From Thermodesulfobacteriota bacterium (lineage in GTDB: Bacteria > Desulfobacterota > Desulfobulbia > Desulfobulbales > BM004): a stretch of 60,533 nt of DNA. The notes beneath the pieces are model-generated. The model worked only from the letters and a program-made list of their open reading frames with translations, was not told the DNA's origin and searched no databases. Each line of letters begins with the position of its first letter. The first letter of the stretch is position 1. Positions 14,864 through 60,533 of the stretch are shown here, piece after piece. Where the stretch lies: contig JBHPCH010000002.1 of the NCBI GenBank assembly GCA_042576125.1, positions 1-60,533 on the forward strand, given 5' to 3'. The translations under genes and the position numbers were made by a program.

Positions 14864-15580
14864 ATGAAGGATAACACAATGCATAACTTAACAGTTGAAC
14901 CCAATGTACAGCACCTCATTGAGGTCCAGAGTATCGGTAAGGATTACCAGGACGGCGAAACTAACGTTCAGGCGATCAGGCAGATGGATTTTTATATTGA
15001 TGACGGTGAATTTGTTGCAATAATGGGGCAGTCAGGTTCCGGCAAGTCAACACTTCTTTCCATACTTGGCGGACTGAACCATCCAAGCAGGGGGAAGGTC
15101 CTGCTCGACACCCTTGACATTTATAAACTTACCAGTGAACAGCGGGCTGACTTGAGAAGTGAATACATCGGCGTGATCTTCCAGTCATTCCAGCTGATTC
15201 CTTACCTTACAGTGTTGGAAAACATTAAACTTCCAATGGCCATAACGGGCAAAAAAGGAAAAGAACAGGAAAATATGGCCCGGGATGTCCTGGCCAGAGT
15301 TGGTCTTACAGATAAAGCAGACCGACTGCCGGACCAGCTTTCAGGCGGGGAACAGGAACGGGTCGCCATTGCCAGGGCAATTGTTAATAAACCGCCTATC
15401 CTGCTTGCGGATGAGCCCACCGGCAGCCTTGACAGCAATACTGCCGATGAAATATTGAACCTTCTCAAGGAATTGAATGAAGAAGGGCAGACCATCATTA
15501 TGGTCACCCATAACCCTGATGCCTGTAAAGATACGACCAGAACCATCCATGTGAAGGATGGTTTATGTTATGAACATTGA
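14864..15580 (+). CDS. ABC transporter ATP-binding protein (MacB/LolD-like)
   Basis: 238 aa with Walker A GQSGSGKST, signature LSGGEQERV and Walker B ILLADEPT. Confidence 0.9.
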   Translation: MKDNTMHNLTVEPNVQHLIEVQSIGKDYQDGETNVQAIRQMDFYIDDGEFVAIMGQSGSGKSTLLSILGGLNHPSRGKVLLDTLDIYKLTSEQRADLRSEYIGVIFQSFQLIPYLTVLENIKLPMAITGKKGKEQENMARDVLARVGLTDKADRLPDQLSGGEQERVAIARAIVNKPPILLADEPTGSLDSNTADEILNLLKELNEEGQTIIMVTHNPDACKDTTRTIHVKDGLCYEH

Positions 15581-15723
15581 TACAATAAAATTTTCTAATC
15601 TCTGCCCTGTGCGTGCCCTTTCCCCACTAGCCCTCCCTGGCTTATGGGGCACCACATCCCTCCTCCGGAACCGACTGTTATGATGATCTAGCAATTCGGT
15701 CCAACTGAACGCCCAAGCCCAGA

Positions 15724-15785
15724 GGGCCATCCGTTAACAGCACGGGCAGAGTCAGCTGTTAACGGATGGCCCTTATTATTTTCCA
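15724..15785 (+). terminator. rho-independent terminator of the HMA-ABC operon
   Basis: Perfect 18-bp stem GGGCCATCCGTTAACAGC (15724-15741) / GCTGTTAACGGATGGCCC (15755-15772) with a 13-nt loop, followed by TTATTATTTT. Confidence 0.75.
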
Positions 15786-15955
15786 GACCAGTAACTCAGC
15801 ATTACACTCTCCACTCATAATAATAGTTTACCCCTATCATTATACTATAATTACTCTACCCTTTTATAATTTTGCAGTATTGGGTAAGGTAGCTGCAATT
15901 AAACTGATCTTTCAATTTTTTAAAAAATTTAAACTTCAGGTTTCAGGAGAGAGTA

Positions 15956-17209: not shown

Positions 17210-17242
17210 TATGATATCAACACCGACGATTCTAATCTTATC

Positions 17243-18760: not shown

Positions 18761-18842
18761 TTAAAAACTGCATCCCTTTTGATATCCAGTGTAAACTACC
18801 CACCGCTCTTTACGTATGGACATTACTGATAAGATTCGCTCG

Positions 18843-21356
18843 CTAACCCCTGCTGCTCGTGTCATTATCCATATGTGCATCAGGTGAAGCAGCAGCATCT
18901 TCAACTCCATCAAGAATAGCCCTGACCCTTGCCGATAACTGGCTGGGGCTGAAAGGTTTCTGCATAAAAAATGTCCGTTGGAGATCGTGGAGATCATGAG
19001 GGGCTATCTCTGAGGTATGTCCACTGATAAACAGTATCGGCAGGTTATCAAACTTGATACGGAACGTTTCAGCCACAGCCTTGCCGCTTAACCCGGGCAT
19101 AACAACATCAGTGATCAACATATCAATTTTTTTATCGTACTCGTGGATTATCCGGATGGCTTTCTCGCTGCCGCTCGCTTCAATCACCTTATAGCCAAAA
19201 ATTTTCAGCCCAGTTGAAATTGCATCAAGGACCTCTTTGCTGTCTTCCACAATCAGGATGACCTCGTTACCCTGCTGGAGGTCTACAGTCTTTTCTTTCT
19301 TTTCATCGCTGGGTTTGTATTCACTCTCTTTAGGCAGGTAAATCATGACGGTAGTACCCTGCCCGGGCTGGCTTTCCAGAATAATGTGTCCACCGTGCTG
19401 TTTCACAATTCCGAATACAGTTGAGAGACCAATACCTGTTCCCTTGCCTGTAGGCTTAGTGGTGAAAAAAGGATCAAATATACGGTCCTGAGTATTTTTG
19501 TCTATACCGGACCCCGTGTCACTAACTGTCATAAGGACAAAATCACCTGAAAAGAAGTTCCTCTCAGAATCCAACAAAGGATCTGATACGGGGATTGATT
19601 CATTCCTGGTGGTAATAGCAATATGCCCACTCTCTTTTATCGCGTCCTTAGCATTTACTATCAGGTTAATCAGTACCTGCCCCAGCCTTCCTGTATCAGC
19701 TTTAGTAAACCACAGATCTCTTTCCAGGTTATATTTCAGCTCAATATCCTCCCGAATAAGCCGGTTTAGCATCTTTCCCATATTCTCAACGACTGAGCTG
19801 ACATTGATCCTGCGGGTATCCAGTACCTGCTGACGGCTGTATGCAAGAATCTGCTTGGTAAGGTCTGCAGCTGAACTGGCACTCTCTATAATAATGTCAA
19901 AGCATTCCTGAATTTTATCATGCTCGTTCTTTTTCAGGTGTAGTTCACCAAGCTGGGCATAACCAATTATTGGGGTAAGAATATTATTGAAGTCATGGGC
20001 AATACCTCCGGCAAGGGTACCTAAAGCTTCAAGTTTCTGACCATGATGATACCGCTCCTCCAGCATGGACTTCTCAGCTTCCATCTTTTTGCGTTCACTG
20101 ATATCACGATCTATGCCATGGTAGCCGACTATTTTTTCCTTACCGCCTGTCACCGGTGTTGCACTGGATTCAACAAAAATAATTTTACCGTCCTTTGTGA
20201 TAACCTGGCGCTCAACCCCTTGAAAACCCTGGAAATTTTCAAGACTTTGCTGAAATTGTTTTTTAAATTCCTTAACAGCATCAGGAGCGGTAAGTGTATC
20301 AAATAACGATTGCCCCAGAAGTTCTTCCGGCAAATATCCATATAAGTCTTCACAAACAGGTGAGCAGTAGGTAAATCTGCCCTCGCTGTCAATTTCCCAC
20401 ACCCAATCACTAGTCGTCTCAACCAGTGACCTGAACCGCTCCTCGGATTCATGTAGAGCCTCTTCAAACTCTTTACGCAATGTGATATCCCAGAAACTCT
20501 CCACCACCCCGATAATTTCATTATCTCTGTCTTTAAGTGGTGATGCATTTATTGATATGGTCTTCGACTTTCCGCCTTTATCCAGAAAGGTAAGTTCAAC
20601 ATTATGACCACTCTGATCATCAATACTGCCTGGACTGCATTTACGGCATATTGACTCATTGGAGATTTTCTGAAAAATACAGGGGCGCCCCATTACTTCT
20701 TCAGCACTGTACCCGGTGACCTGCTCGGCAGCAGGATTCCAGGAAGTAATTCTGCGCTGCATGTCGGTCGTAAAAATGGCAGCCGGTGTGGTTGTAAGAA
20801 TTGTTGATAACTCTTTACGCTGTCTTTCTTCAATCCTGAATATTTTCCACTTTTCACATAAAGAAAGTGCTATCTGTTTCAGTTCGTCCAGATCAAACGG
20901 TTTCCTGAGGTAGAGTAGTTTATGGGGAGGATTGACAGCCTGGGCTATCTCATCCCTTGATCTGTCAGCATAGGCTGTCACAATAACAATTTCTATATCA
21001 GGATCAATGGCACGAATCTGTACAGCTGTTTCCATACCATCCCAGCCGGGCGGCATTCTGACATCAATAAAGGCAATTGCAAACGGCTTATTTTCCTCAA
21101 GAGATTTTTCAACAAGCTGGAGACCTTCCTGCCCCTGGGAAGCAAAACTGACATCAAAATTTTCCTGGCCTGGCAAATCCGTTAACCCGGCGTCAGCAAC
21201 AAGTTCTTCCATCTTTTTCTGGGCGGTAAATTTTCCTTCAAGCTGCTGGGGAGCCAGAATGGCCTTGTAGGCTTCCCATACATCGGGATCATCATCAATA
21301 ACAATTATTCTGTTATTAGATGTCTTTTCTATTTGATTAGTTGTCTTCATTATCAA
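18843..21356 (-). CDS. hybrid sensor kinase: REC-PAS-PAS-HisKA-HATPase_c-REC
   Basis: 837 aa. The N-terminal REC+PAS module is paralogous to that of the 505-aa kinase. H-box is GGIAHDFNNILTPI; ATPase boxes are NAKDA, DTGSGI and GTGIGL. C-terminal REC (ILIVEDS...ITDVVMPGLSG...QKPF). Confidence 0.9.
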   Translation of the reverse strand: MIMKTTNQIEKTSNNRIIVIDDDPDVWEAYKAILAPQQLEGKFTAQKKMEELVADAGLTDLPGQENFDVSFASQGQEGLQLVEKSLEENKPFAIAFIDVRMPPGWDGMETAVQIRAIDPDIEIVIVTAYADRSRDEIAQAVNPPHKLLYLRKPFDLDELKQIALSLCEKWKIFRIEERQRKELSTILTTTPAAIFTTDMQRRITSWNPAAEQVTGYSAEEVMGRPCIFQKISNESICRKCSPGSIDDQSGHNVELTFLDKGGKSKTISINASPLKDRDNEIIGVVESFWDITLRKEFEEALHESEERFRSLVETTSDWVWEIDSEGRFTYCSPVCEDLYGYLPEELLGQSLFDTLTAPDAVKEFKKQFQQSLENFQGFQGVERQVITKDGKIIFVESSATPVTGGKEKIVGYHGIDRDISERKKMEAEKSMLEERYHHGQKLEALGTLAGGIAHDFNNILTPIIGYAQLGELHLKKNEHDKIQECFDIIIESASSAADLTKQILAYSRQQVLDTRRINVSSVVENMGKMLNRLIREDIELKYNLERDLWFTKADTGRLGQVLINLIVNAKDAIKESGHIAITTRNESIPVSDPLLDSERNFFSGDFVLMTVSDTGSGIDKNTQDRIFDPFFTTKPTGKGTGIGLSTVFGIVKQHGGHIILESQPGQGTTVMIYLPKESEYKPSDEKKEKTVDLQQGNEVILIVEDSKEVLDAISTGLKIFGYKVIEASGSEKAIRIIHEYDKKIDMLITDVVMPGLSGKAVAETFRIKFDNLPILFISGHTSEIAPHDLHDLQRTFFMQKPFSPSQLSARVRAILDGVEDAAASPDAHMDNDTSSRG

Positions 21357-23190
21357 TCACATGTTCATTATTCTCATCATCCCTCACAAGAGGAAGATGG
21401 ACGATAAATTCAGCACCCGTACCCGGACCGTTGCTTTTTGCTTCAATGGTCCCTTTATTTGCTATGAGGAAATTAGCGCAAGAATGCAAACCAAAACCTG
21501 ACCCTTCTCTTTTGGAAGTATAACCATAGGTGAAAAGCTTCTCTTTGTCTTCAGGGGCAAAGCCCATCCCGGAATCTTTTATTGCTATGGATATAAACTT
21601 GCCATCATTGTCAAGGTTAGCAGAAACGGCTAGATTACGCTCATCAAGTTGCTTATCTCTCATTGCTTCTAAAGCATTTTTTACTAGATTAATAATAACT
21701 TGCAGAAGCTTGGACTGCTCTATCCGGATAGGCGGCAGATCAGATTCAGTATCCTTTTTTACTGCAACTGAATATTTGGTTATAGAATCTGCCAGCATTT
21801 CCAGGGAATCATTTATGACCTTGTTGACATTTACATTTTCAATATTGCCTGAAAGCCTGGCATAGCGCAGTTGCAGATGAATGATAGACTCAATGTGTTC
21901 ATGCTTAGCCCGTATCCGTTTTATTTCACTGTTTATATGGTCATACTCTTCAATGATCGCATCCGGCATTACTGCAACTATCTGCTGGAGCTGCTCTCTT
22001 TCATCCTGAGGTAAGTCTCCGGGGGCAGCTATAAAATTATTGAGACGCGCCATCATCTCTTTAATGTGGTTACGGATTCTGCTCTCATTAATTCTTTTAA
22101 TTAACAATGCGGTGCTGACCTTGGCCGGGGTGATTGCATTTCCTATATTGTGCAGGATGCCAACTGCCATTTCAGCCATACCGGCTTCGTGGGCCTGGCG
22201 CAACAAGTCTGCCTGGGCCATTTCCAGGTCCCTTGTACGTTCCTCAACCTTGAACTCCAGGTTTCTGCTGTGCTGTTCCAGCTGCTCATAAGATGTATGC
22301 AGCTTTCCTGTCATGGAGTTGAATGAATCAGAAAGGTGAATAAACTCCCGGCAGGAAAGACCGTCCATAGAAATCCGGTGCTTGAGATCCCCTTTTGATA
22401 TTTTCTTAACCCCATTACTTAAAACATTCATGGAACGAATAAATGTCCGGGTGAAAAAGAAAGAGACTAGAGCCCCTATCAGAAAGAAAAAAAGCGTGAT
22501 AGATACAAATGAGATCTTGAGATTGTTCATTTTCTGAGCCCATTCCTGTCTCACGGATGCTGCTTCAGCGTCTAACTTTTTAAAGGAATACCCGCACCGT
22601 AAAAACCCTGCCAGACTTGCGCCACTGTAAACCGGGGTGACTACCTCCAGTGCGTTGATAAAATTTTCATCTTCCTGCACTTTTATCTCAAAAAATCGCA
22701 CTGGGGTGGGTAAATCTTCATCCGTCAGCTTGGCCAGGAATATTTTTTTTTCTAAATCTGAAACCAAAATGGAAGTAGTATCATCCAGGGTCTGGCCAAT
22801 ATTTTTTGAGTCATTGTGAGTCAATATTTTACGATTGGGGGCCATAATATAGGCGTAAATTATTTCCGACTCTTCATTAACCACCTGGGTGAACATGTTA
22901 TTAAGAAAGGAAAAATCAAACCCGGCAATGGCCTGGCCGGCACTGAGAGCGAGATTTTTCGCCAGTGAGGAACTGCGGAGCTCAAGATCCTGCCTCATTT
23001 GCACTATCATTCGCTCAAGGTGTGTATTTTGAAAAGTTGTCTCTTGTCGAAAAAAATATGTGGCCATGGTAGGAAACAGCAAAAAGAGGAGAACAAAATT
23101 CATCACAATCAGATAGACCAGGATTGACGGCTGCCATCGACCGGTCATTTGATTTGCTTTCTGTCCTGTAAGGGTTTTCTCTATGCTCAT
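21337..23190 (-). CDS. membrane sensor kinase: TM - ~190-aa extracytoplasmic domain - TM - HAMP - kinase core with atypical H-box
   Basis: 617 aa with two TM segments and HAMP (MNVLSNGVKKISKGDLKHRI...FNSMTGKL). H-box-like GILHNIGNAITP; ATPase boxes NALEA, DSGMGF and GSGFGL. The start overlaps the preceding gene's stop by 4 nt. Confidence 0.8.
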   Translation of the reverse strand: MSIEKTLTGQKANQMTGRWQPSILVYLIVMNFVLLFLLFPTMATYFFRQETTFQNTHLERMIVQMRQDLELRSSSLAKNLALSAGQAIAGFDFSFLNNMFTQVVNEESEIIYAYIMAPNRKILTHNDSKNIGQTLDDTTSILVSDLEKKIFLAKLTDEDLPTPVRFFEIKVQEDENFINALEVVTPVYSGASLAGFLRCGYSFKKLDAEAASVRQEWAQKMNNLKISFVSITLFFFLIGALVSFFFTRTFIRSMNVLSNGVKKISKGDLKHRISMDGLSCREFIHLSDSFNSMTGKLHTSYEQLEQHSRNLEFKVEERTRDLEMAQADLLRQAHEAGMAEMAVGILHNIGNAITPAKVSTALLIKRINESRIRNHIKEMMARLNNFIAAPGDLPQDEREQLQQIVAVMPDAIIEEYDHINSEIKRIRAKHEHIESIIHLQLRYARLSGNIENVNVNKVINDSLEMLADSITKYSVAVKKDTESDLPPIRIEQSKLLQVIINLVKNALEAMRDKQLDERNLAVSANLDNDGKFISIAIKDSGMGFAPEDKEKLFTYGYTSKREGSGFGLHSCANFLIANKGTIEAKSNGPGTGAEFIVHLPLVRDDENNEHVIDNEDN

Positions 23191-24143
23191 CTCTCAATTA
23201 TTTTCGTTGCCTGATCCAAGGTGTTCCGACTTACCTGTAAACCGATCTTCTTTGCTGTTTTCAAGTTGATAAACAAGCGTGTGCCAATGGGAGGCATAAC
23301 ACCTATCCTGCCTGGCTTCTGATTATTTTGCAGAATACTTTTTGTAATTGAGGCTGCCTGGCTTCCCAAATTTTTCTGGTCAGGATCAACACTGAGTACT
23401 ATTCCGAGTTTTGCAACATTTTCAGAAGGCCCCAGACATATTATCCGATCATTAATGCAACGGCGTTCAAGCCATGAGATATTTTCAAGGGTATAAACAA
23501 CCGGGTCAGGCAGGATCCAGTAGCTGTCAATCTTGTCTTCCATACCTTTGAAAGCGCGTTGAAATTCCTGCGGATTCACTATGACTTTCTCTACGAGTTT
23601 CAGGTTAAGTATTTCAGCAGATTTCCTGGCTGATTCTATAAATTGACTTGAATATTCTCTGCTGTAAACTATCCCAACCTTATTGATTTCAGGTGAAAGC
23701 ATGGAGAGGTTGGCAAGATGCGTTCCGGGCGCCACGTCATAAGCAATTCCAGCAACGTTGCCCTGGCGGCCGATAAGGTCATAACGTTCCCAGTTAAGAA
23801 CCATGGCAAAAACAACCGGTATCTCCGGTTGATCTGCTGTCCAGACCTTGCTTATCACCGCAGCCTTGGCGCCAAGGGCAAAGATAAGTTGGGGATTACG
23901 GCTAATGATTTCAGTCATGACTTCAGGTGCCCGCCGCACATCGCCCTTAAGGTTGTAAATCTCTACAGGCAGATTGACCTCTTCAGTGAAACTATCGATA
24001 GGACCGGAATACGCCTCTTCCGTATCGCTAACCAGAATCACAATCGGTTGCTCACTGCCGGCCAGCAGCATGGCAGGTCCAACCAACCATGCAATGCCAA
24101 ACAACAGTATAATAATTTTATTGCGTAAAATTTTGCCAGTCAT
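23187..24143 (-). CDS. periplasmic binding protein, ABC_sub_bind-like (no cognate permease/ATPase nearby)
   Basis: 318 aa with a signal peptide. The pattern IVILVSDTEEAYSGPIDSF...ALGAKAA...GIAYDV reads like the orphan 'ABC transporter substrate binding protein' family often found next to kinases. Confidence 0.6.
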   Translation of the reverse strand: MTGKILRNKIIILLFGIAWLVGPAMLLAGSEQPIVILVSDTEEAYSGPIDSFTEEVNLPVEIYNLKGDVRRAPEVMTEIISRNPQLIFALGAKAAVISKVWTADQPEIPVVFAMVLNWERYDLIGRQGNVAGIAYDVAPGTHLANLSMLSPEINKVGIVYSREYSSQFIESARKSAEILNLKLVEKVIVNPQEFQRAFKGMEDKIDSYWILPDPVVYTLENISWLERRCINDRIICLGPSENVAKLGIVLSVDPDQKNLGSQAASITKSILQNNQKPGRIGVMPPIGTRLFINLKTAKKIGLQVSRNTLDQATKIIER

Positions 24144-24966
24144 CGATCTGCAACATTTCCATTATTTTATTACGGGGACGATCTGAGGTCATTTTTTTAA
24201 ATGCCTCTACCAGTTTCTTCACATCTCCTGATTCCACCCTGCCTTCCAGATAGCAAAGGACAGGCATAGGTACTGTGATACTTCTATCAAGTTTTTTTAT
24301 CGTTCTAATAATTCTGGGATTTGCATCTGATATGACCTGTAAATTATCCTGGCCCACCAGGGCCATTTTTACCTGGCCGAGGACAAGGGCCAGAATTGCA
24401 TCCAGATCTTTCGGTACACTGATTATGTTTAATTGCTGTACACTGACCAACTCTTCTGAGACCAATTCTTTAATTGCTGCTGTTGCTCCATCAGGCCCCA
24501 TGGTTGTCATGGCAAATGATATGATTTCATAGTCACTCGCAGCAGTCGCACTCACTTGTGAAGCCAAAAGGATTTTCTTGTATGAGGTCGAACCGTTGCG
24601 CATAGGGACAAGAAGAGGACGCAACCCAAGATCCTTGCCGTATTTACGAAAATACCACTCAGGTACAAGGATAAATGATGGCCGCTTTTCACTGTTCAGA
24701 CGGTGAAAATCAACAAAATGGGTAAATGGTTGGAAGGTGAATGAAAAATTATTGTCGGATAAAAACGATTGAAACTCCTGCTTCAACCGCCCGAGATTAC
24801 TTTGGGGTGAGTCAGGATTAAAATAATAAAATTCTCCGGGAAAAGTGGTGTTTGCTGAGATTGTGGATATGCATACGCTTTGCCCGCCAAAAACAAAAAA
24901 CAGGACAAAACACGTTAAGAAAGCGCTATACAGAAAAGCCCTCTTCCTCAATACAAAACACCCCAA
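24118..24966 (-). CDS. periplasmic binding protein, PhnD/SsuA-like type-2 fold (probable)
   Basis: 282 aa with an N-terminal hydrophobic signal/anchor. Weak but recognisable similarity in layout to the clearer PhnD-like protein at 53605-54519. First gene of the signalling operon. Confidence 0.4.
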   Translation of the reverse strand: MGCFVLRKRAFLYSAFLTCFVLFFVFGGQSVCISTISANTTFPGEFYYFNPDSPQSNLGRLKQEFQSFLSDNNFSFTFQPFTHFVDFHRLNSEKRPSFILVPEWYFRKYGKDLGLRPLLVPMRNGSTSYKKILLASQVSATAASDYEIISFAMTTMGPDGATAAIKELVSEELVSVQQLNIISVPKDLDAILALVLGQVKMALVGQDNLQVISDANPRIIRTIKKLDRSITVPMPVLCYLEGRVESGDVKKLVEAFKKMTSDRPRNKIMEMLQIDDWQNFTQ

Positions 24967-25165: not shown

Positions 25166-26125
25166 TTAATATATCAGCCTTTTTTCTCCCTCAATCTTCT
25201 GGATGGCACCGATAGCCTGGGTTACTTCCAAAACTCCCATATATTCTCCGGCTTCATCATATACAGGATAGTAGCGGATCAGGATCTTGTCGCCTCTGAA
25301 GTCAATCCAGAACTCTGCGTGGTCCATGGTGCGTTCCTTGAATCCGCTCACTATCTGATTCACCGTCCCAACACTTTTTTCCGGGTGACATTTTTCCACT
25401 TTGCGGCCAATAACAGAACGGGTTCTAGGAAAAAGTTTGGTTTTGTCCAGTTTATTGAAATAGGCCACGGTGTCTTCTGCATCCACAAAGGTCACCTCAA
25501 AAGGAAGGGTTTCCATGATTGCATCGATCTGCTCATAGGAAAGGTTGCGGATAAGGCGTTTTTTCGCTTCACTGTCTTTCTCCACTTCGGCAAGCATCTG
25601 GGCATAATGATCTCTTGCCGTATCTCCATAAGTCTGCCGGTCCAGGGTTTTAAATTCGTTTAACAGAGAGGTATTATCCTCTTCACTGAAAACCTTGCGT
25701 CCCATGGCATAGAGCACATCATTTTCCTTCCAGATATGCTCGGCCCGTATGGTGAGATATTCAAACCCTTCGGCAGCAAATTTCTGCCGGGCAACTGGTG
25801 TTGCTTCAGCCAGATTTGGAAGTTCCGCCATCATTCGCTGCAGCAGTTTTCTCTCAGCGTCATGCTCCATGAGCATTACACCTATGGGCCCCCCCTGCAC
25901 CGGAAGTCCTTTCTGTTCCATGAGAGGGAAGAGAAATTTTTCCTCTTTTGTATTATGAACCTTGTCACCAAATTCCAGCAGAAAGTCTATGGCTCTCTGC
26001 ATCTGCAACGGAGTCTTGATTGCCTCATCAATTTTTTCCAGGTTGCTCCTTAATACTGCCATGGCCCTCTCAATCATCTCATGCTCTGCCACGAGGAAGT
26101 CATCCCATCTTGTATAGTTTTCCAT
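25166..26125 (-). CDS. hemerythrin-like + DUF438 + PAS domain protein
   Basis: N-terminal hemerythrin/HHE-like helices (LVAEHEMIERAM...HNTKEEKFLFPLMEQ...MLMEHD), central DUF438-like region and C-terminal PAS (VTFVDAEDTVAYFN...RKVEKCHPEKS...IRYYPVYDEAGEYMGVLEV). The ATG at 26125 has a GGAGG SD; the longest ORF starts at 26164. Confidence 0.7.
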   Translation of the reverse strand: MENYTRWDDFLVAEHEMIERAMAVLRSNLEKIDEAIKTPLQMQRAIDFLLEFGDKVHNTKEEKFLFPLMEQKGLPVQGGPIGVMLMEHDAERKLLQRMMAELPNLAEATPVARQKFAAEGFEYLTIRAEHIWKENDVLYAMGRKVFSEEDNTSLLNEFKTLDRQTYGDTARDHYAQMLAEVEKDSEAKKRLIRNLSYEQIDAIMETLPFEVTFVDAEDTVAYFNKLDKTKLFPRTRSVIGRKVEKCHPEKSVGTVNQIVSGFKERTMDHAEFWIDFRGDKILIRYYPVYDEAGEYMGVLEVTQAIGAIQKIEGEKRLIY

Positions 26126-26238
26126 AGTGCGCCTCCAGCAAATTAAAATATTATATTGCTTCAATCATCCTGTTTAGTTGTAATACTGTATTTTTTTCTC
26201 TTGACTATATATTTTAGATGACCCGACGACACAAGACC

Positions 26239-51974: not shown

Positions 51975-52119
51975 ACAATCCCTAAAGGCAGGGACATAAT
52001 GTTTCACAGAATCGTTCGTGATACATTGTTTGAAGAATCGAGAATAACTGAGCCACCTTATATTTAACTGAGTGGCTTCAAGCCAGGACAGAGCTTCTTC
52101 CCTTTTTCTGGAGATGCAC

Positions 52120-53601
52120 TCACGTTTTTGCCGAATCCTCCTCAATTGGAAAGGTGAGGGTAAAGGTCACGCCTTCCCCACCGGGATTGTTCACAACAGA
52201 GATATCACCACCATGGTGTTGCTCGACAAGGCGTTTGGTTATTGCCAGGCCCAGACCTGTTCCCTTGGACTTGGTAGTAAAAAAGGGTTTGAATACTTCA
52301 GTAAGTGATTTTTCCTCTATACCTTTCCCATTATCGACAAAGGAGATTTGCACTAAACCATCCGAGGACTGCCGTGTTTGTATGGTTATGACACCCTGAC
52401 GTTCAGAAGCCGAGTAGATAGCGTCTACCGCATTGAGTATCAGATTCAGAAAAATCTGTTGCAGCTGACCAGGGTCGGCAACAATATTCGGAAGTTCAGG
52501 ACTGAGCTCCCTGACGAATTCGATCTGCCTGTCTTGGCCATTAACCTTATATTTTGGTGAACGCAGGGAATAACGGGCTGATTTGATTGTTCCCTCCAGG
52601 AGCTGGTTTACATCCAGGGAAATCAACTTGGGTTTCGGGGGACGGGCATAGCTAAGCAAACCTTTGAGCATGGCCATGATTCTGTCAATTTCATTGATCA
52701 CCCGGAGAAGCACCTCTTTGTCCTCCTGGGGGAGGGGTGAGTCTTGACTGAGAACTTCCATGGAAACCTTGATCCCTGCCATGGGATTCTTTATTTCATG
52801 AGCCATGCCGGCTGCAAGTTCTCCGACCACGGCCAGCCGTTCCGTCTGCTGTAATTTAGTATATTGCTCCTCCAGGGAAACAGCCATCTCGTTAAATGAT
52901 CCGGCCAGCTCTCCAAACTCGTCTTTTAAGTTTTTTTCTATCCGATACTGCAGCTTACCTGATTTGATCTTGCGGGTAGCTCCCAGGAGCTCTGTAACCG
53001 GCCCGGTAATACTTTTGATGAAATATATTGAGAAAATGACTCCCACTAAAAATGCAAAGACCAGAGTGCCTGTTAAAATCTTTTTAGAGTCAGCCACATC
53101 CGCCATTGCCACAGTTGTCTTTTGCCGCAAGGACTCGTTGGCTATTATTGCCATCCATTGAGACTTCTCAATTATCCTGTCACCGATATCAGCTGCAAAA
53201 ATCTGAAGTCGCTTGATACGTTGAGTGTCGGCCGTCGAAGTTATAAAATAACTAAGAGCCTCACTGTACTGCCCTGTCAATTCCTGCAACTGACTAATTT
53301 CATTGGCCATCCCTGGTTCATGATGGCAATCAGAACATGTTCCAGCCCGATCACTCAGTTTGAGGACATTATCCACTATAATGTCCAAATCCTTGTTGAA
53401 TGAAGTACCAATGGTATACAGATTTGACTGAACCGTCTGGACGTTGATGACCAGTTCCTGCCGGATAACCTCTACTTTATGCAGCAAAAGCAGAGAGGCA
53501 AGATTCGTGGTTGTCTTGTTGATAATATGCAGGGTTGTGGCGATGCCCGTGAGGAACAACAGGAATAACAAGAAGAAGGCCATGATAATTTTTTTCTTCA
53601 T
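52120..53601 (-). CDS. sensor histidine kinase: TM - helical periplasmic domain with CXXCH - TM - HAMP - HisKA - HATPase_c
   Basis: 493 aa. TM1 at aa 6-25, CSDCH at aa 89-93, TM2 at about aa 186-207. HAMP (ITGPVTELLGATRKIKSGKLQYRI...FNEMAVSL), H-box AAGMAHEIKNPMAGI, ATPase boxes NAVDA, DNGKGI and GTGLGL. Last gene of the mtrAB-like operon. Confidence 0.85.
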   Translation of the reverse strand: MKKKIIMAFFLLFLLFLTGIATTLHIINKTTTNLASLLLLHKVEVIRQELVINVQTVQSNLYTIGTSFNKDLDIIVDNVLKLSDRAGTCSDCHHEPGMANEISQLQELTGQYSEALSYFITSTADTQRIKRLQIFAADIGDRIIEKSQWMAIIANESLRQKTTVAMADVADSKKILTGTLVFAFLVGVIFSIYFIKSITGPVTELLGATRKIKSGKLQYRIEKNLKDEFGELAGSFNEMAVSLEEQYTKLQQTERLAVVGELAAGMAHEIKNPMAGIKVSMEVLSQDSPLPQEDKEVLLRVINEIDRIMAMLKGLLSYARPPKPKLISLDVNQLLEGTIKSARYSLRSPKYKVNGQDRQIEFVRELSPELPNIVADPGQLQQIFLNLILNAVDAIYSASERQGVITIQTRQSSDGLVQISFVDNGKGIEEKSLTEVFKPFFTTKSKGTGLGLAITKRLVEQHHGGDISVVNNPGGEGVTFTLTFPIEEDSAKT

Positions 53602-53604
53602 CTG

Positions 53605-54519
53605 TTACTTACCGTGTACCGTTAGGGCTCCCAGGGCCTTCTGTGCCATTTTTTCTATGATGCTAAAATCCTCTTTGTTTGACTCGACAAAACGCTTGGC
53701 GTTAAATTGTTTGAGAACCTTCATGCCATAATCCGTTCTGTCCATTTGAATCAGAACACTGCGCAACCTTTCACGTAAATCCTGATCAATTTCACTTTTT
53801 ATGCAGAGGGTAACTTCAGGGACTTTGGGGGATCGGGCAATAATTTCCAACTCCTGCCCAACAGAAGGATCATTGTTTACCAGGTTGTTATAAACCGTAC
53901 TTTTCGCTGAACCAATGTCAGCCCTTCCGTCCAGTACTGCAAAAATTGCCGATTCATGGCTGCCTGAAAAATAATATCGATGAAAAAACTTGTTCATTTC
54001 CTTAACACCATGCTGCTCCAAAAATGCCAGAGGGAAAAGGTATCCTTCCATTGTTGCCGGGTCCACAAATACTATGTTACCATTTTCCATATCAGAAACG
54101 CTTCTTATGCCGCTGTCTTTCCGTACAAAAATGTATCCCTGCGAAGTTACCTCCCCCTTCAGGTTGACTGGATTAACAATGGGTGCCAAATTTAACTCTT
54201 TAATACCCAGGGTGGCGGTATAGGAAGTCAGAAATGCTCCATCCAACTTGAGGGTTTTAAACCGTTTAATCACTTCACCATAACGGCTCATTATGGTGAG
54301 TTTTACTTTTACCCCAAGTTGATCCGAAAGGTACTCGGCAATGTAGCGATACCGTTTCATCTGCTCAAAGATATTGTGCTCGGGTTCGATACCGATCAGC
54401 AGTTCACTTGTCTGCCCGAAAACGATAACCGGCATAGCTGCTGAGGAGATAAAACAGAAAAGCAGAAAAGCGATAAAGCTTCGCAAAATATTATTTTTCG
54501 GCAGAGAAATCGACCTCAT
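53605..54519 (-). CDS. periplasmic binding protein, PhnD-like (phosphonate-bd type fold), orphan
   Basis: 304 aa with a signal peptide. LLIGIEPEHN...YIAEYLSDQLGVKVKL...LDGAFLTSY...GYIFVRKDSGIRS...VFVDPATMEGYLFP pattern. The start overlaps the upstream stop by 4 nt. Confidence 0.6.
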   Translation of the reverse strand: MRSISLPKNNILRSFIAFLLFCFISSAAMPVIVFGQTSELLIGIEPEHNIFEQMKRYRYIAEYLSDQLGVKVKLTIMSRYGEVIKRFKTLKLDGAFLTSYTATLGIKELNLAPIVNPVNLKGEVTSQGYIFVRKDSGIRSVSDMENGNIVFVDPATMEGYLFPLAFLEQHGVKEMNKFFHRYYFSGSHESAIFAVLDGRADIGSAKSTVYNNLVNNDPSVGQELEIIARSPKVPEVTLCIKSEIDQDLRERLRSVLIQMDRTDYGMKVLKQFNAKRFVESNKEDFSIIEKMAQKALGALTVHGK

Positions 54520-55454
54520 TCAATAACCCTTGTAGCTTCAATTAACAGCTGAATGGGGATAGTAATACCGAGATACTTTGCTTCCACAAGATTTAACACC
54601 AACTCCGTATCACGAAAGATATGGGCGGGAACGTCAACAGGCTTTTTCCCACTCAGAATCTGTGATACTAATTCCGCAGCCATTTCTCCCTGCGAAGCCG
54701 TCGGTTGATACAGAGTCATCAGCACCCCGGACTCCGAATTGTCCGGAAAAATATCAGCAACAGGAACCTGTTTTTGATCCAAAATCGTTATAATTTCATC
54801 GAGCCACAAGTGAGCGATAGAACTTCCCGTCATAAAAACGGCATCCGCATTTATTGCCTTCAGTTTTTCCAGTTCGGCGCGTGACCGAATATCAATTTTT
54901 TCAGTTTTTATTTTCTGCTGTGAGCAAAGGAGTTGCATTGTTTCGTATTGCCGAACCGAATCTTCTTCAGTACTGCTGAAAACAATGCCTATGGTGTTGA
55001 CTGTTTTGAAACGTTTAAAGTATCGAAGAATACTCGACAGAGGTACCTTAAAGCCACAACCTGTAACATTTTTTGCGCTTAGAGCTGCTTCATCAGGTTC
55101 GTACAAACCGGCATAAACCAGAGGGATTTTGCTTTTTTCCTGGATAACGGCATGGGTCGCGGGGGAACCATATGTCATGATAAGGTCTACATCAAATGCT
55201 ATGAGTTTTCGGGCGGCGTTACTCCAGGATATGGGATTCGGGAAAGGTCTTTGCAGGAGTATCTCTAATTTTTCAGTCCCGGTATATCTCTTGTTCATTT
55301 CAGCGACAAAGCTATCATGTATCTCCCTGTAAAAAGAGATATCACCGGTCATGATTACACCTATTCGTTTTTCCGCATGCAAACCCGGTGCGGCAGCAAG
55401 AACGAATAAAACCGTGAGCAGTATTCTCAGCAAATGGTGGTGTAACGTACTCAA
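54516..55454 (-). CDS. periplasmic binding protein, ABC_sub_bind-like, orphan
   Basis: 312 aa with a signal peptide. RIGVIMTGDISFYREIHDSF...IMTYGSPAT... layout parallel to the protein at 23187-24143. Starts 1 nt after the mtrB-like stop. Confidence 0.6.
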   Translation of the reverse strand: MSTLHHHLLRILLTVLFVLAAAPGLHAEKRIGVIMTGDISFYREIHDSFVAEMNKRYTGTEKLEILLQRPFPNPISWSNAARKLIAFDVDLIMTYGSPATHAVIQEKSKIPLVYAGLYEPDEAALSAKNVTGCGFKVPLSSILRYFKRFKTVNTIGIVFSSTEEDSVRQYETMQLLCSQQKIKTEKIDIRSRAELEKLKAINADAVFMTGSSIAHLWLDEIITILDQKQVPVADIFPDNSESGVLMTLYQPTASQGEMAAELVSQILSGKKPVDVPAHIFRDTELVLNLVEAKYLGITIPIQLLIEATRVIE

Positions 55455-55455
55455 T

Positions 55456-57471
55456 TTAAAAATACCTTTTCATGGTGAAGGTGGAGCTGAACACATCGCC
55501 ATCCAAAAAGTCCGTAGATGTATCATCATCGTATTTATTAAAAAACAGCCTGAGCCCGATTTCCCAGTCTTTGGGAAGTTTTTTGGCCATATCAAGAGAA
55601 AAGCTTGTTTCTGATGCTTCAAAATCTGACAATGAGGATAAAGACTCTCCTTCAAACACAACAGTATAATCGGTTGAAGCTTTGGTTATTGTATGGGAAA
55701 GATCGGCTCCCACAGTAAAATCATCCCGCGGGACCCAATAAAAGGATAATGAAAAGGAGTTAGCATTATCTGTATAGGGAACCCCTAAATCTATAAAATA
55801 TGGAGGAACATCAGTTGGCACTTTTGAGAACACAAGATCCTGTTCTACTTTCATGCGCTGATAATACCAGCTTGCAGTAAATGAAAGCTTGGGAGTAATT
55901 CCTGTCGTAAAGCTGGCGAGAAAGTGCTCACGTTTCCCATCTCTTTCCAGTTGGTCAGGAACATCAAGATAACTCAAGGAATCTCTACCAGTCAGAACCA
56001 GAAGGTATTCCGCATAAATATTAAGGTCAGGAGATGGTGTGTAGGTAGTTGTCAAATACAGTTTATTGGAATTATCCGGGTTCGTGTTAAATCCAGGCTG
56101 ATCGTAATTCTTATATTCGTATAATGCTTTTACCTTGAGTTTATTTAGAGGCCTTGCCCTTGCAGTGAAGTTAATTGTGTGGATACTGGTTCGCCCGGAA
56201 AGAAGCTCCCAGTCTGCGGTATCTTTTCGTTCGAGATGGGAAAACTCATAGTCTGCATATAACGACAGAAAATTTACCGGTTTATATCTGGTGGATAAGG
56301 TGAGCACGTCTTTTTTATATGACATACCCTGCCGGACCGGAGAGAGGTTATTATAATAGGTTTTGTCACCATTATAGCCAATCAGATAAACAGTACCGGG
56401 AGTATCCATGTCCACATCTTTATGCCGGTATTTGAAGAAGAGGCCTAATACAGGATCGGGTACCCAACTGATGTCAAAGGCTCCCTTCCAGGTGGTGGAC
56501 TCTGTCAGGCTGAAATTATTTTTCTGGAACAGATTACTAAAAGTTGCGGCAGCGACAATCCCGCCGGTATAGGATGAATGCATCTTGATAGTGTGGGCCG
56601 ATGATTCGGTTTCCGGAATGACATTGTGCGGGTAAGTACCTGCAGGTCTATCTGGGAAGGTTGAACTTGTATATGCAGGAAAATTTTCATAACGAAGAAT
56701 ATTGTTTGAACCTGGATCGAATTTGGACTGATCATAAGCGTATTCAATCTCAACAGGTCCGAGGTGACTGTTGACTCCAAGTGTTACGGTATCTGTCTCC
56801 CATTCTATGTCCCGGGATTCGGATATCATTTTGTTTATGCCACCGAACCCATTTGGCTCGCCGAGTTGATTTATATATCCGGGCATAAACCTCTGCTGTA
56901 TCCTGCCGTCCTTTTCAACATGGCGATGATTAACAAAGGTGTGAAAGGGAAAATCCGGGGTCTTCAGTCTAAGTAATATAAGGTTGCTGGTAAAATCCTT
57001 ATAATAAGCATCAGTTGGATTATTGTCGTCACGGAGGTTTGAGGAAGAATAATTATAATGACTCAGATTATGCTGGACCCCTCCCAGGATGTCCCTGAAC
57101 AGGAGTAAATCTTTATAGGCGAAACCGGCATCCAAATAAAAATCATGCTTGCTGATAAATTCGGTATTGATGTGATACCTGTATGGTAGCGGGGCTGACA
57201 GCAGATTAAGACCAAAACTCATAGATGAATGAGGGTAACTGAATTCAGCCGCTTTCAATGAATCATCGGTGGAAATTACCCGGTATCCCAGAGAAAAATC
57301 ACCTTCAGTCTTGAAGCTGACAGCAGAATCTGCCGTTACCGTACTAACGACCGGCCCGGTAGTCTCTGGGAGTGGCTGGTCTTCTGCAGCCATACTGATA
57401 GAAATTCCACAGCATAGGACAAGTCCGAAAACAAAAACCTTCAAGCCCCAATCCTTTTTTATATAACTCAT
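55456..57471 (-). CDS. MtrB/PioB-like outer-membrane beta-barrel (porin partner of a decahaem cytochrome)
   Basis: About 671 aa from the ATG at 57471, which overlaps the cytochrome stop as ATGA. Signal peptide (VFVFGLVLCCGISISMA), Tyr/Asp/Ser/Thr-rich alternating beta-strand pattern and a C-terminal ...KRYF. Size and position match MtrB-type partners. The longest ORF starts at 57543. Confidence 0.65.
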   Translation of the reverse strand: MSYIKKDWGLKVFVFGLVLCCGISISMAAEDQPLPETTGPVVSTVTADSAVSFKTEGDFSLGYRVISTDDSLKAAEFSYPHSSMSFGLNLLSAPLPYRYHINTEFISKHDFYLDAGFAYKDLLLFRDILGGVQHNLSHYNYSSSNLRDDNNPTDAYYKDFTSNLILLRLKTPDFPFHTFVNHRHVEKDGRIQQRFMPGYINQLGEPNGFGGINKMISESRDIEWETDTVTLGVNSHLGPVEIEYAYDQSKFDPGSNNILRYENFPAYTSSTFPDRPAGTYPHNVIPETESSAHTIKMHSSYTGGIVAAATFSNLFQKNNFSLTESTTWKGAFDISWVPDPVLGLFFKYRHKDVDMDTPGTVYLIGYNGDKTYYNNLSPVRQGMSYKKDVLTLSTRYKPVNFLSLYADYEFSHLERKDTADWELLSGRTSIHTINFTARARPLNKLKVKALYEYKNYDQPGFNTNPDNSNKLYLTTTYTPSPDLNIYAEYLLVLTGRDSLSYLDVPDQLERDGKREHFLASFTTGITPKLSFTASWYYQRMKVEQDLVFSKVPTDVPPYFIDLGVPYTDNANSFSLSFYWVPRDDFTVGADLSHTITKASTDYTVVFEGESLSSLSDFEASETSFSLDMAKKLPKDWEIGLRLFFNKYDDDTSTDFLDGDVFSSTFTMKRYF

Positions 57472-58466
57472 TGGGTAAACCTTCCATTTCCTGAGGTTGA
57501 CGGAACATCTGAGCCATGGATACTTGAGTGACAATCCGTACATCGTATAAACAATGCCATGCCCCTCTCGAGGGTTATGCCGCCCGTATCTGTATTTATT
57601 CTGTGACTATCATGACACTGGAGGCACAAAAAGGGCTCCCGTGCATTGAGAAGCTTATTGTTAACTGAACCATGAGGGCTGTGGCAGTTGAGACAGTCCT
57701 CTGCCACATCCGCATGTTCATAAAGGAAAGGACCTCTCTTCTCGGCATGACACTGGACACATGTCTCTTTGACACTGTCCTGGATAAGATCCTGTTCTGT
57801 AAATCCTCCGTGAGCATTGTGACAGTCTGCGCAGGAGACCCTTCCCTCCTTAAGGGGATGATGACTCGGCAGGGAAAACTGCGCCTGGGCATCCTGATGG
57901 CAGTTGAAACAAAGAATGCCGGCAGCGATCGGTGTAACTTTCAAATCCGGACTGGAATGAATATCATGGCATTTAAAACAGGAAACTTCGTTAATTGCAT
58001 GTACTCCGGCGTTCCAGTTATGCAGGTTGAAGGTGGCGTTTGCCGTATGACATTTGAGGCAAATGAGTGACTGGGCAGTGGCGGGCAAGTTTTTCAGGTC
58101 GATCAGGGTTTTAAAATTACAGGCTGCCTTGATGCCCTGCCTGGCTTTTTCCTCAACCAGTTCTTTGGTCAGATCCTTGATAGCCAGGCTACCCGGGCCA
58201 TGGCAGGATTCACAATCCACCAGGGGCATGCCGGACTCCTTTTTCAGTTGGGCACCCATGGTGCTTGCATCAAAGAACTGCCTCAAACGATCATGTTCAT
58301 GACAGGCTGCCAGGCAATTTTCGGTACCGACATAATCTGCATAAAGATCACCGACAATCATTTTTTCATATTCACGGATCGGCAGAATCGGCTTTGATCC
58401 TTTTAAGTCAGCACATCCGCTGAAGACAGTAAATATGATTATTATGAGCAGGAATGATTTATTCAT
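57468..58466 (-). CDS. MtrA/DmsE-family periplasmic decahaem c-type cytochrome
   Basis: 332 aa with signal/lipobox (VFSGC) and exactly ten CXXCH motifs: CLAACH, CESCH, CLKCH, CFKCH, CFNCH, CADCH, CVQCH, CLNCH, CLQCH, CTDCH. Confidence 0.85.
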   Translation of the reverse strand: MNKSFLLIIIIFTVFSGCADLKGSKPILPIREYEKMIVGDLYADYVGTENCLAACHEHDRLRQFFDASTMGAQLKKESGMPLVDCESCHGPGSLAIKDLTKELVEEKARQGIKAACNFKTLIDLKNLPATAQSLICLKCHTANATFNLHNWNAGVHAINEVSCFKCHDIHSSPDLKVTPIAAGILCFNCHQDAQAQFSLPSHHPLKEGRVSCADCHNAHGGFTEQDLIQDSVKETCVQCHAEKRGPFLYEHADVAEDCLNCHSPHGSVNNKLLNAREPFLCLQCHDSHRINTDTGGITLERGMALFIRCTDCHSSIHGSDVPSTSGNGRFTQ

Positions 58467-59107
58467 AATGGTGTTCCCTGGTGAGTATATAGTGCCCCAT
58501 TGCAGCCTTTCCCTTCCGGACAGGGCCTTATTTGAAAGACGAAACCCTGCACATCAGAGATGCCTAAACTGCTGGTGATGATGAGAAATCGCTTTTTGAT
58601 TCTCATAAAAGAATGTCCATGCCGAATCACCCCGATTCTGCCAGATACTTTTTTATAATGAATCGCAGCTAAGGCTGTCAACATAAATGAAAATTTAATA
58701 TAAGCTTCTGCCTCTCCAAACTATTCAAATCATGCAATTTCAGCACTGCGGGTCAAACTATTTACAAGCTAAGTTTACCATTTGGCACTGCAATATACAA
58801 AATCTGAAAATTTCACATGATAGCAATATGTTATATAAACCTCTCCTTATGAACACATACAGTTTTTTATAATCAAGCTAATTCCCCTCAGACTTTCTGA
58901 AATTTGCCAGATTATCCACCGGGTTTTTGAAAAATTTATGTCACAATAATTCTTTTTATTCAAACATTTACACTTAATGCTCTCTTGCCGCCCGGCAGCC
59001 CACTGCATACTATTTGCATATTTTTATATTCTTTTAAGAATAATTAAATCTTGATTTTTGTATGTAATTTTATTAAATTTTTTGTGGAAGAGGAGAGAAA
59101 AAGGGGA

Positions 59108-59557: not shown

Positions 59558-60533
59558 TTAAAAAATGTCCTCATATTCTGACTCAATTGCTTCAATCCCG
59601 GCCTGTGCTTCTTCCCATTTATTGTAGTGTCGCTCCAATTTTCGCTCAATCCCCTTATATTCTATACTGCACCCGGCAAACTTATCCTGATCCTGATAAA
59701 GCTCCGGGTCTGCCATCATCTGCTCAAGTTCTTTCTTGCGAGATTCCAGACTGCTGATCGCCTCTTCAATCAGCGCAACTTCTTTTTTCAATGGATTAAG
59801 ATTTTTGCTTTTCTCCAGCCTGATCCTGGCCTGCTCCTGTCGTGCCGCCTTCCCTTTCTGCTTTGCAGGTTGAGCAGCCAAGGCTTCCCTGTCTTCTTCA
59901 ATCCGAATTGCGGATTCTTTCTCCTGGAGGCTTTTCAGCTTATAAAGATAATCATCAATATTGCCTTCAAAGAGGGATGCCTGCCCATCTTTTATCTCCA
60001 GAACCTTATTGATGAAACCATTTACAAAATGCCTGTTATGCGACACAGTAATAATGGTACCGTCATATTGGGCCATAGCTTCCTGCAAAATTTCCTGGGA
60101 ACTCATATCAAGATGATTTGTGGGTTCGTCAAGAATAAGAAGATTGGCGGGTTGCACTATCATCTTTGCCAGAGCAAGCCTGCTTTTTTCCCCTCCTGAA
60201 AGCACCTGCACTTTCTTGTCCACCTCTTCGCCCCTGAAGAGAAAGGCGCCAAGCAGGCTCCGTGTTTGCGTAACCGTCATATCACCGGCAACTGCCGACA
60301 GTGTCTGCAGGGCGGTAAGGCTTGGCGCAAGCTCCTGCGCCTGGTGCTGGCCGAAGTAGGAAATCCTGGCGTTATGGCCCAGCTTCACTTTACCGCCATC
60401 CTCACCCTCAAGTCCTGCAAGAATTCGCATCAAGGTTGACTTGCCGGCTCCGTTAACTCCCACCACTGCCAATTTATCCCCCCGCTGCAACTGGAAGGAT
60501 ATATCCTGAAAGACCTGCCTGTCTTCATAGTTC
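59558..60533 (-). CDS. ABC-F family ATPase (C-terminal part; gene continues beyond window end)
   Basis: Second NBD (GVNGAGKSTL, LSGGEKSRLALA, LILDEPTNHLD) plus a C-terminal coiled-coil tail. The reading frame is open to the window edge. Confidence 0.85.
   Translation of the reverse strand, partial: NYEDRQVFQDISFQLQRGDKLAVVGVNGAGKSTLMRILAGLEGEDGGKVKLGHNARISYFGQHQAQELAPSLTALQTLSAVAGDMTVTQTRSLLGAFLFRGEEVDKKVQVLSGGEKSRLALAKMIVQPANLLILDEPTNHLDMSSQEILQEAMAQYDGTIITVSHNRHFVNGFINKVLEIKDGQASLFEGNIDDYLYKLKSLQEKESAIRIEEDREALAAQPAKQKGKAARQEQARIRLEKSKNLNPLKKEVALIEEAISSLESRKKELEQMMADPELYQDQDKFAGCSIEYKGIERKLERHYNKWEEAQAGIEAIESEYEDIF

Follow-up and report, generated by a model that had tools for sequence, protein, structure and literature searches.

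A divergent MtrAB-type porin-cytochrome pair encoded together with two binding proteins and a haem-motif sensor kinase in an operon of Desulfobulbales

Introduction

In research on extracellular electron transfer, it is an open question how bacteria locate insoluble minerals, electrodes or partner cells and respond to them. Here, a stretch of 60,533 nucleotides from a sediment-dwelling Thermodesulfobacteriota bacterium of the order Desulfobulbales (GenBank assembly GCA_042576125.1, contig JBHPCH010000002.1, positions 1 to 60,533; hereafter the window) is analyzed with respect to five minus-strand genes at 52120-58466, which encode a decahaem cytochrome, an outer-membrane barrel, an ABC_sub_bind protein, a PhnD-like binding protein and a membrane histidine kinase with a haem-binding motif. 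An earlier reading of the window, made from the sequence without database searches (the sequence-only reading), had described these genes as an MtrAB-like conduit in one operon with two orphan binding proteins and a haem-motif kinase. According to the best supported explanation, the operon would couple an outer-membrane electron conduit to periplasmic, binding-protein-assisted signal transduction.

Regarding the conduit, the operon resembles the Shewanella MtrCAB complex (PDB 6R2Q) in encoding a decahaem MtrA homologue and a large barrel by adjacent and overlapping genes. It differs from MtrCAB in that no MtrC-type surface decahaem is encoded in the operon, the cytochrome is a predicted lipoprotein with CXXXCH as its first haem motif and an insertion carrying an invariant cysteine (Cys116), the barrel is highly divergent, and the operon runs on into genes for binding proteins and a sensor. 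MtoAB and PioAB(C), like the operon, are two-protein conduits with a barrel of the MtrB/PioB Pfam family and no outer decahaem. The usual partners of MtoAB and PioAB are a CymA/MtoC-type quinol dehydrogenase, MtoD and the high-potential iron-sulfur protein (HiPIP) PioC, whereas signalling genes are linked to the conduit of the operon in place of these partners. A further relative is the GSU2203 (OmcK)/GSU2204 pair of Geobacter sulfurreducens, both members of which are induced with haematite and magnetite. The second-best NCBIfam match of the cytochrome is NF041028 (233 bits, below the cutoff), and GSU2204 is itself an MtrB/PioB-type barrel whose family model, NF041027, matches the operon barrel with 85 bits, below its cutoff. 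Unlike GSU2204, the operon barrel contains neither CXXCH nor selenocysteine. A paper on a multihaem selenoenzyme was considered as a source for GSU2204 and excluded, as it concerns MccSep of G. sulfurreducens, a soluble five-haem tetramer.

Regarding the signalling part, AioXSR, ArrXSR and TorT-TorS share with the operon a PhnD-family gene directly before that of a membrane kinase, the transmitter of which is NtrB-like. AioXSR and ArrXSR are further matched by the association with respiratory electron-transfer genes and, in a free-standing clade of the haem kinase described below, by an NtrC-type regulator gene in the next position. The operon departs from AioXSR/ArrXSR in that its sensor is a predicted haem-bearing four-helix bundle instead of an sCache-like domain, a threonine takes the place of the presumed arsenite cysteine, no regulator is adjacent, an extra ABC_sub_bind protein is present, and the sensory genes are embedded with a conduit. 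A single CXXCH in a periplasmic input domain is a feature of the PAS-type chemoreceptors GSU0582 and GSU0935, of Cache_haem proteins and of DcrA, which are also transmembrane transducers of metal- and sulfur-cycling anaerobes; the operon kinase is unlike these in its NarQ/Tar-like bundle, its CxxCHH motif with His41, and its obligatory PhnD-like partner. In the literature found, haem-c periplasmic sensors have PAS or Cache folds only.

In the FecA-FecR-FecI system, an outer-membrane barrel is the first element of a trans-envelope signalling chain. The likeness to the operon is an analogy with no homology, and the operon would transmit electrons or redox state, not ligand occupancy. Conceptually nearest is the chemotaxis-like electrode-sensing network of Geobacter, which is not known to involve conduit-linked sensor genes. 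Papers on metagenome-assembled genomes (MAGs) and isolates have noted these mtrA/mtrB homologues without mtrC and read them as markers of iron reduction. No description of the sensor linkage, of the haem four-helix-bundle domain or of the PhnD/haem-kinase/regulator triad was found in the literature outside subscription journals.

Organization of the operon

The genes and elements of the operon are given below, with the genes taken from the listing of open reading frames (ORFs).

57468-58466, minus strand: MtrA/DmsE-family decahaem cytochrome, 332 amino acids (aa)
55456-57471, minus strand: MtrB/PioB-type barrel, 671 aa counted from the ATGA-overlap start
54516-55454, minus strand: ABC_sub_bind protein, 312 aa, TTG start
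53605-54519, minus strand: PhnD-family (Phosphonate-bd) protein, 304 aa
52120-53601, minus strand: sensor histidine kinase with transmembrane and HAMP segments, 493 aa
53320-53337, minus strand: codons for CSDCHH, kinase residues 89-94, predicted covalent haem c site
58652-58681, minus strand: candidate sigma-70-type promoter TTGACA-18-TATAAA, about 185 nt 5' of the cytochrome start, found by eye
51978-51995, both strands: terminator-like hairpin between the kinase stop and a convergent BON-domain gene, found by consensus match

The coordinates and all four junctions, as read from the sequence, agree with the earlier description of five minus-strand genes almost without spacers. The cytochrome and barrel genes share an ATGA overlap, the barrel and ABC_sub_bind genes are separated by 1 nt, the ABC_sub_bind and PhnD-like genes share a second ATGA overlap, and 3 nt lie between the PhnD-like and kinase genes. 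The 671-aa barrel product that begins at the ATGA overlap is also the version in the public protein collection. On its 5' side, the operon is preceded by about 1.1 kb of AT-rich non-coding DNA containing a divergent small ORF; the TTGACA-18-TATAAA element was not listed by the consensus scan because its second hexamer has A at position 6. The hairpin probably marks the 3' end of the operon. A consistent sigma-54 -24/-12 element was not found upstream of the cytochrome gene in 50 loci, and an Rfam scan of the operon and its leader gave no credible match.

Across the 60.5-kb window, no other ORF of at least 70 aa contains more than one CXXCH; therefore, no MtrC- or CymA-type cytochrome is encoded there. 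An extracellular decahaem (MtrC/OmcA) is not conserved in the related loci described below either, and the same holds for a tetrahaem CymA/NapC-type quinol dehydrogenase, for which there is no ORF in the window and no conserved gene in the flanks. The sequence-only reading had reported MtrC, CymA and HiPIP as absent from the window; the first two absences stand by the CXXCH count, and HiPIP was not specifically searched. Its statement that no permease or ATPase accompanies the binding proteins also holds, with no ABC-importer permease or ATPase genes in the operon or its conserved relatives; by eye, the nearest ATPase-like gene is at 59558-60490.

The decahaem cytochrome and the outer-membrane barrel

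The cytochrome matches TIGR03508 (DmsE-family decahaem) with 258.7 bits, above the curated cutoff of 192.2, which confirms its membership of the MtrA/DmsE family, and its residues 46-323 align with residues 62-327 of MtrA (6R2Q chain A) with an E value of 4e-46. Ten haem sites stand as first proposed, although they consist of nine CXXCH motifs and one CXXXCH instead of ten CXXCH; the longer motif is the first one, C51-L-A-A-C55-H56. A lipobox (FSGC) with Cys18 predicts the protein to be a lipoprotein. This cysteine and all ten haem motifs are kept in 48 orthologues from two phyla, and among ten candidate distal histidines eight are invariant and two occur in at least 90%; ten such residues would suffice for bis-His ligation of the predicted haems. 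The CXXXCH motif and the extra Cys116, which falls in an insertion that Shewanella MtrA does not have, are both invariant in the same orthologues.

The barrel scores 31.2 bits against PF11854 (MtrB_PioB), above the gathering score of 23, in a match limited to residues 195-492. NF041027 is its only NCBIfam match, and the NCBIfam MtrB/PioB model is not listed for it. An AlphaFold model built with 25 homologues as input contains 26 strands at a mean pLDDT of 65.7, and its top Foldseek match in the PDB is MtrB (6R2Q_B; E 3e-11, TM-score 0.38). The 256 barrel homologues belong mainly to Desulfobulbales (Thiovibrio, Desulfurivibrio, Desulfocapsa and Desulfobulbus MAGs), and one of the related loci, L001, comes from a complete Thiovibrio genome. 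As judged from sequence matches and the model, the cytochrome and the barrel are a divergent MtrAB-type porin-cytochrome pair, and the MtrAB-like conduit claimed earlier is borne out by TIGR03508, PF11854, and the sequence and fold matches to 6R2Q.

Conservation of the linkage and exchange of transducers

Fifty-eight related loci from Desulfobulbales and Nitrospirota were compared. In three homologue look-ups, the five genes are the same and the flanks are different, and a scan of one genome per species gave 55 loci, onto all of which the five window proteins were mapped. All 26 Desulfobulbales loci with enough downstream sequence keep the cytochrome, barrel, ABC_sub_bind, PhnD-like and kinase genes, and the tiny junctions (ATGA overlaps or gaps of 1-3 nt) are kept as well; in one subclade, the kinase is a HAMP-PAS-kinase-receiver hybrid. 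The cytochrome-barrel-ABC_sub_bind triad is almost invariant in the related loci and persists in Nitrospirota, with barrel identity among linked loci spanning 87% down to 27%. The ABC_sub_bind gene lies directly 3' of the barrel gene in nearly all related loci of both phyla and stays joined to it whichever transducer comes next.

In Nitrospirota, the triad is followed by a variety of transducers. Two loci (L032 and L051) continue with a PhnD-like protein and a HAMP-GAF kinase, one (L042) with a PAS-GAF-HD-GYP protein, and most of the others with at least one chemoreceptor composed of a transmembrane helix, sCache_3_2, a second transmembrane helix, HAMP and MCPsignal, the gene of which usually overlaps the ABC_sub_bind gene by 4 nt. 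The triad of L047 and L048 is followed by genes for two methyl-accepting chemotaxis proteins (MCPs), CheW, a HEAT protein and CheB, in this order; additional MCPs are encoded in L054, and additional MCP fragments together with a HEAT-repeat protein in L045. In these four loci, the conduit heads a chemosensory cluster. L054 also contains a 931-aa ORF (14866-17661) with HAMP, MCPsignal and a C-terminal Phosphonate-bd domain, which is either a real fusion of a chemoreceptor with a binding protein or two genes merged through a sequencing or ORF-calling error. The binding proteins vary in three loci: in L033, an SBP_bac_8 protein with weak NCBIfam matches to 2-aminoethylphosphonate, thiamine and spermidine binding proteins replaces ABC_sub_bind; in L050, a PstS-like protein (weak NCBIfam PstS-type match) is added before the chemoreceptor; and L039, which lacks a separate binding protein, is flanked by a convergent gene for a hybrid kinase to which a PhnD-like periplasmic domain is fused.

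A transducer on the same strand is present in about 46 of 49 informative loci and an adjacent transducer in 48 of 50, L039 and the window included, with only L040 and L049 missing one. No other gene family is conserved in the flanks of about 50 loci. The neighbourhood survey proposed with the sequence-only reading thus finds the five-gene linkage conserved in Desulfobulbales and the triad with a transducer (hereafter the cassette) across two phyla. Two close relatives of the cassette were found in odd bins: L004, with a barrel identity of 69%, is labelled "Nitrospinaceae", and the other, whose cytochrome falls in the 90% cluster of the window cytochrome, is labelled 'Nitrospira bacterium SG8_35_1'. 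As the other close relatives are all Desulfobulbales/Thermodesulfobacteriota, these contigs are probably mis-binned or mislabelled.

The haem-motif kinase

The kinase consists of a first transmembrane helix, a periplasmic four-helix bundle, a second transmembrane helix, HAMP, HisKA and HATPase_c (Pfam/NCBIfam, with the topology from AlphaFold), and it has an AtoS/ZraS-type (NtrB-like) transmitter. Residues 1-250 are modelled by AlphaFold as all-helical (pLDDT 78). The periplasmic segment (residues 28-175) matched no Pfam family; the best fold match of the bundle is the sensor-transmembrane-HAMP fragment of NarQ (5IJI), which is weak (E 2e-3, TM-score 0.41), and further weak matches are the four-helix-bundle domains of Tar and PcaY and the binding-protein-dependent LytS sensor. 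The CSDCHH motif is placed between helices 2 and 3 of the bundle.

The haem motif claimed for the kinase proved near-universal in its family. In 28 of 28 cassette-type and paralogous sensors, the called ORF has CxxCHH at residue 89 or 90. An exhaustive HMMER search places the sensor domain in 253 clusters at 50% identity, always at the N-terminus of proteins of about 470-990 aa, and among the 148 cluster representatives listed, CxxCH occurs in 147 and CxxCHH in 146. In 95 diverse members, C89, C92, H93 and H94 are the sole invariant columns, and H41 is present in at least 90%. This pattern suggests that haem c is covalently attached to the kinase, where H93 would be the proximal ligand and either H41 or H94 the distal one, and that the sensor of the kinase may represent an unannotated, apparently new haem-c four-helix-bundle domain. 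GSU2507 of G. sulfurreducens, which is encoded near omcS and the loss of which raises omcB expression, was considered as a family member and excluded on its annotation as Cache_1-HAMP.

The two binding proteins

The PhnD-like protein matches PF12974 (Phosphonate-bd) with 190 bits, and its best PDB matches are ArrX (6X8W, E 5e-21) followed by AioX (6ESK), which act in the periplasm as partners of the kinases ArrS and AioS. It shares with them the D-P-x-S/T...G and S-H motifs. At the position of the AioX cysteine (I-C-G-Y), the aligned PhnD-like protein has threonine (L-T-S-Y). This cysteine of the I-C-G-Y motif is the arsenite-binding residue of AioX. The PhnD-like protein always co-occurs with the haem-type kinase.

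The ABC_sub_bind protein has a signal peptide and matches PF04392 with 90 bits. Its closest structures are 3LKV and 3LFT, with the TrpX-type 6HNI also near; these bind aromatic amino acids. Q68, P70, N79, R82, E106 and N288 are invariant. The name of orphan binding proteins does not hold for the PhnD-like protein, which groups with known sensor-kinase partners in ArrX and AioX, and the two binding proteins of the operon are most likely co-sensors, not transport orphans.

Free-standing PhnD/haem-kinase/regulator triads

When metagenomes were scanned with a divergent clade of the haem sensor, 80 loci (L060-L139) with a free-standing kinase were obtained. CxxCHH is kept in 79 of them, and ABC_sub_bind was found in none. 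A PhnD-like gene lies directly upstream of the haem kinase in 63 of 67 loci, two further cases being ORF-calling artefacts, and an NtrC-type sigma-54 regulator lies directly downstream in 41 of 44. Among the 31 loci of at least 8 kb, 20 contain an ORF with at least four haems, and an OmcS homologue (match to 6EF8, E 1e-121) is present in 11 loci; many more loci have other multihaem cytochromes beside the triad. Examples of free-standing triads beside cytochromes are L098 (212-5281) and L109 (7057-12980).

L097 (2876-11233) provides an independent second link between the haem-sensor family and MtrAB-type conduits. Its genes encode, in order, a PhnD-like protein, a haem kinase, an NtrC regulator, a single-domain receiver, a DmsE-family decahaem (245 bits), a canonical MtrB_PioB barrel (270 bits) and a WG-repeat protein. 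The PhnD-like protein and the haem kinase thus appear to belong to an autonomous, apparently undescribed three-component system that favours extracellular-electron-transfer cytochromes, and it is possible that the free-standing triad is a regulator of nanowire-type cytochromes. In the clade of the window, the haem-kinase module has lost its cis regulator and moved into the conduit operon. In L009 (15695-19785), a Desulfobulbaceae MAG, a paralogous CxxCHH kinase followed by an NtrC-type regulator stands beside the cassette and is preceded by a divergent c7-type cytochrome gene.

Interpretation

The five genes would form one operon of two conserved units. Unit 1 would comprise a lipid-anchored MtrA-like decahaem running through an MtrB-like 26-strand barrel, together with an obligatory periplasmic ABC_sub_bind protein, and unit 2 an ArrX/AioX-like PhnD-family protein with a kinase whose NarQ-like bundle would carry covalent haem c. 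The conduit would exchange electrons with an extracellular partner (metal oxide, sulfur species, Fe(II), humics or a partner cell), and the kinase haem would read the redox state of the periplasmic end of the conduit and of the periplasmic cytochrome pool. Both binding proteins would bind to the sensor domain and control it through small-molecule ligands, an oxyanion being probable for the PhnD-like protein. LytS-XylFII is a four-helix-bundle sensor known to use a binding protein. The kinase would phosphorylate a non-adjacent regulator, probably of the NtrC type, and in Nitrospirota unit 1 would feed chemoreceptors instead.

That the conduit, or a cytochrome pool equilibrating with it, sets the redox state of the kinase haem, and that extracellular acceptors or donors are sensed in this way, is proposed with a confidence just short of even. 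It is suggested more tentatively that the MtrAB-like wire is itself a sensory antenna, which would turn the redox state outside the cell into phosphorylation, turnover of cyclic di-GMP (c-di-GMP) or taxis. The site of this conversion may be the periplasm, through the kinase haem or ABC_sub_bind-dependent chemoreceptors, a proposal that is equally tentative.

Sensing is favoured because outputs are exchanged on a constant conduit and binding-protein input, which is the usual signature of an input module; because the conduit heads che operons and its junctions are those of translationally coupled genes, here and in orthologues; because the haem motif is invariant and no respiratory partner is conserved; and because haem-kinase triads adjoin OmcS homologues and a canonical MtrAB pair. 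Of the two interpretations offered in the sequence-only reading, a conduit coupled to sensing is favoured by the conserved linkage, and binding proteins as substitutes for cytochromes find no support.

Several observations weigh against the sensing explanation. The Nitrospirota cassette chemoreceptors are without CXXCH, and therefore a direct haem-to-haem relay cannot be the general coupling mechanism. No NtrC-type regulator adjoins the kinase in any cassette locus; the kinase of the window had already been described as having no adjacent response regulator. The ABC_sub_bind protein has no conserved cysteine, and its His46 is merely near-invariant. As for the barrel, its sequence profile has no match in the PDB at E <= 1, its model is of moderate quality, and its link to MtrB comes from the fold search and Pfam only. 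Furthermore, AioXSR, ArrXSR, TtrSR and TorTSR adjoin the enzymes that they control, so that the layout of the operon is equally expected for mere regulation, and the triad in L097 precedes its MtrAB pair as an ordinary regulator would.

These last two points also speak for the strongest rival, in which the conduit is metabolic, serving Fe(III), Mn(IV) or sulfur reduction or Fe(II) oxidation, and the sensors only control expression or taxis. The respiratory enzymes under the control of AioX, ArrX and the PhnD-like domain of TtrS are encoded in their neighbourhood, free-standing triads adjoin cytochrome genes as ordinary regulators would, MAG studies have read the homologues as iron-reduction genes, and the related GSU2203/2204 pair responds to iron oxides. 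A metabolic role is, however, harder to reconcile with the cassette kinases, none of which adjoins a regulator, whereas nearly all free-standing ones do. Near the conduit, about 50 loci share no quinol dehydrogenase, periplasmic carrier or surface cytochrome, yet they nearly always have a transducer. Respiratory structural genes at the head of a che operon would be unusual, and ABC_sub_bind keeps to the barrel gene whatever the transducer. On balance, a purely metabolic conduit is a serious minority possibility.

The binding proteins may instead be periplasmic working partners of the conduit, with ABC_sub_bind holding a flavin or quinone or delivering or collecting a ligand, and the kinase a passenger. 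ABC_sub_bind is indeed the sole non-conduit gene that is invariant with the conduit in both phyla, its nearest solved relatives (3LKV, 3LFT and 6HNI) bind aromatic amino acids, and its conserved polar residues, of the kind that line a cleft, suggest one conserved small ligand. This account is nevertheless improbable, given that no redox-suggestive residues are conserved in ABC_sub_bind, a protein of another binding-protein family replaces it in L033, it pairs with an sCache kinase at a conduit-free locus in the same window, and the 4-nt overlap with the Nitrospirota chemoreceptor gene is typical of co-receptor pairs. Fortuitous packing of two or three unrelated gene sets, which has nothing but the general compactness of bacterial genomes in its favour, is effectively refuted, since the same order and overlaps recur in 58 loci of two phyla with unrelated flanks and chance adjacency is therefore excluded.

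The cassette is a testable candidate for the sensing of extracellular electron acceptors and donors, as it joins one clade of conduits to kinases, chemoreceptors or c-di-GMP enzymes in about 50 species of two phyla. If the antenna reading is true, insoluble acceptors or donors would be sensed by a route that differs from all described chemoreception and energy taxis. MtrA/MtrB matches in MAGs of Desulfobulbales and Nitrospirota are taken as markers of iron reduction, and this reading may be wrong for the present clade. The analysis also defines two unannotated elements, namely a CxxCHH bundle domain with predicted haem c and the triad of this domain's kinase with its PhnD-like partner and NtrC-type regulator. 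Found repeatedly next to OmcS-like and MtrAB-type cytochromes, the triad may serve to regulate such genes in general.

Other sensory genes in the window

The sole NtrC-type regulator among the window ORFs examined is encoded at 8495-9835 (plus strand), 44 kb away from the operon; the neighbouring kinase (7152-8312) has no transmembrane input. Formally, this regulator could be the partner of the cassette kinase, though it has a kinase of its own.

A conduit-free sensory locus at 17243-24966 (minus strand) contains the same two binding-protein families as the operon:

24118-24966, minus strand: weak PhnD-like protein
23187-24143, minus strand: ABC_sub_bind protein, 23.5% identical to that of the cassette
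21337-23190, minus strand: sCache_3_2-HAMP kinase
18843-21356, minus strand: PAS-kinase-receiver hybrid
17243-18760, minus strand: receiver-PAS-HisKA_3 kinase

The Nitrospirota chemoreceptors whose genes overlap the ABC_sub_bind gene are also of the sCache_3_2 type. In view of this pairing at both the second locus and in Nitrospirota, ABC_sub_bind proteins plausibly also act as co-receptors of sCache sensors. A protein with hemerythrin and PAS_10 domains, which could be a sensor of O2, iron or redox state, is encoded just upstream of the second locus at 25166-26164 (minus strand).

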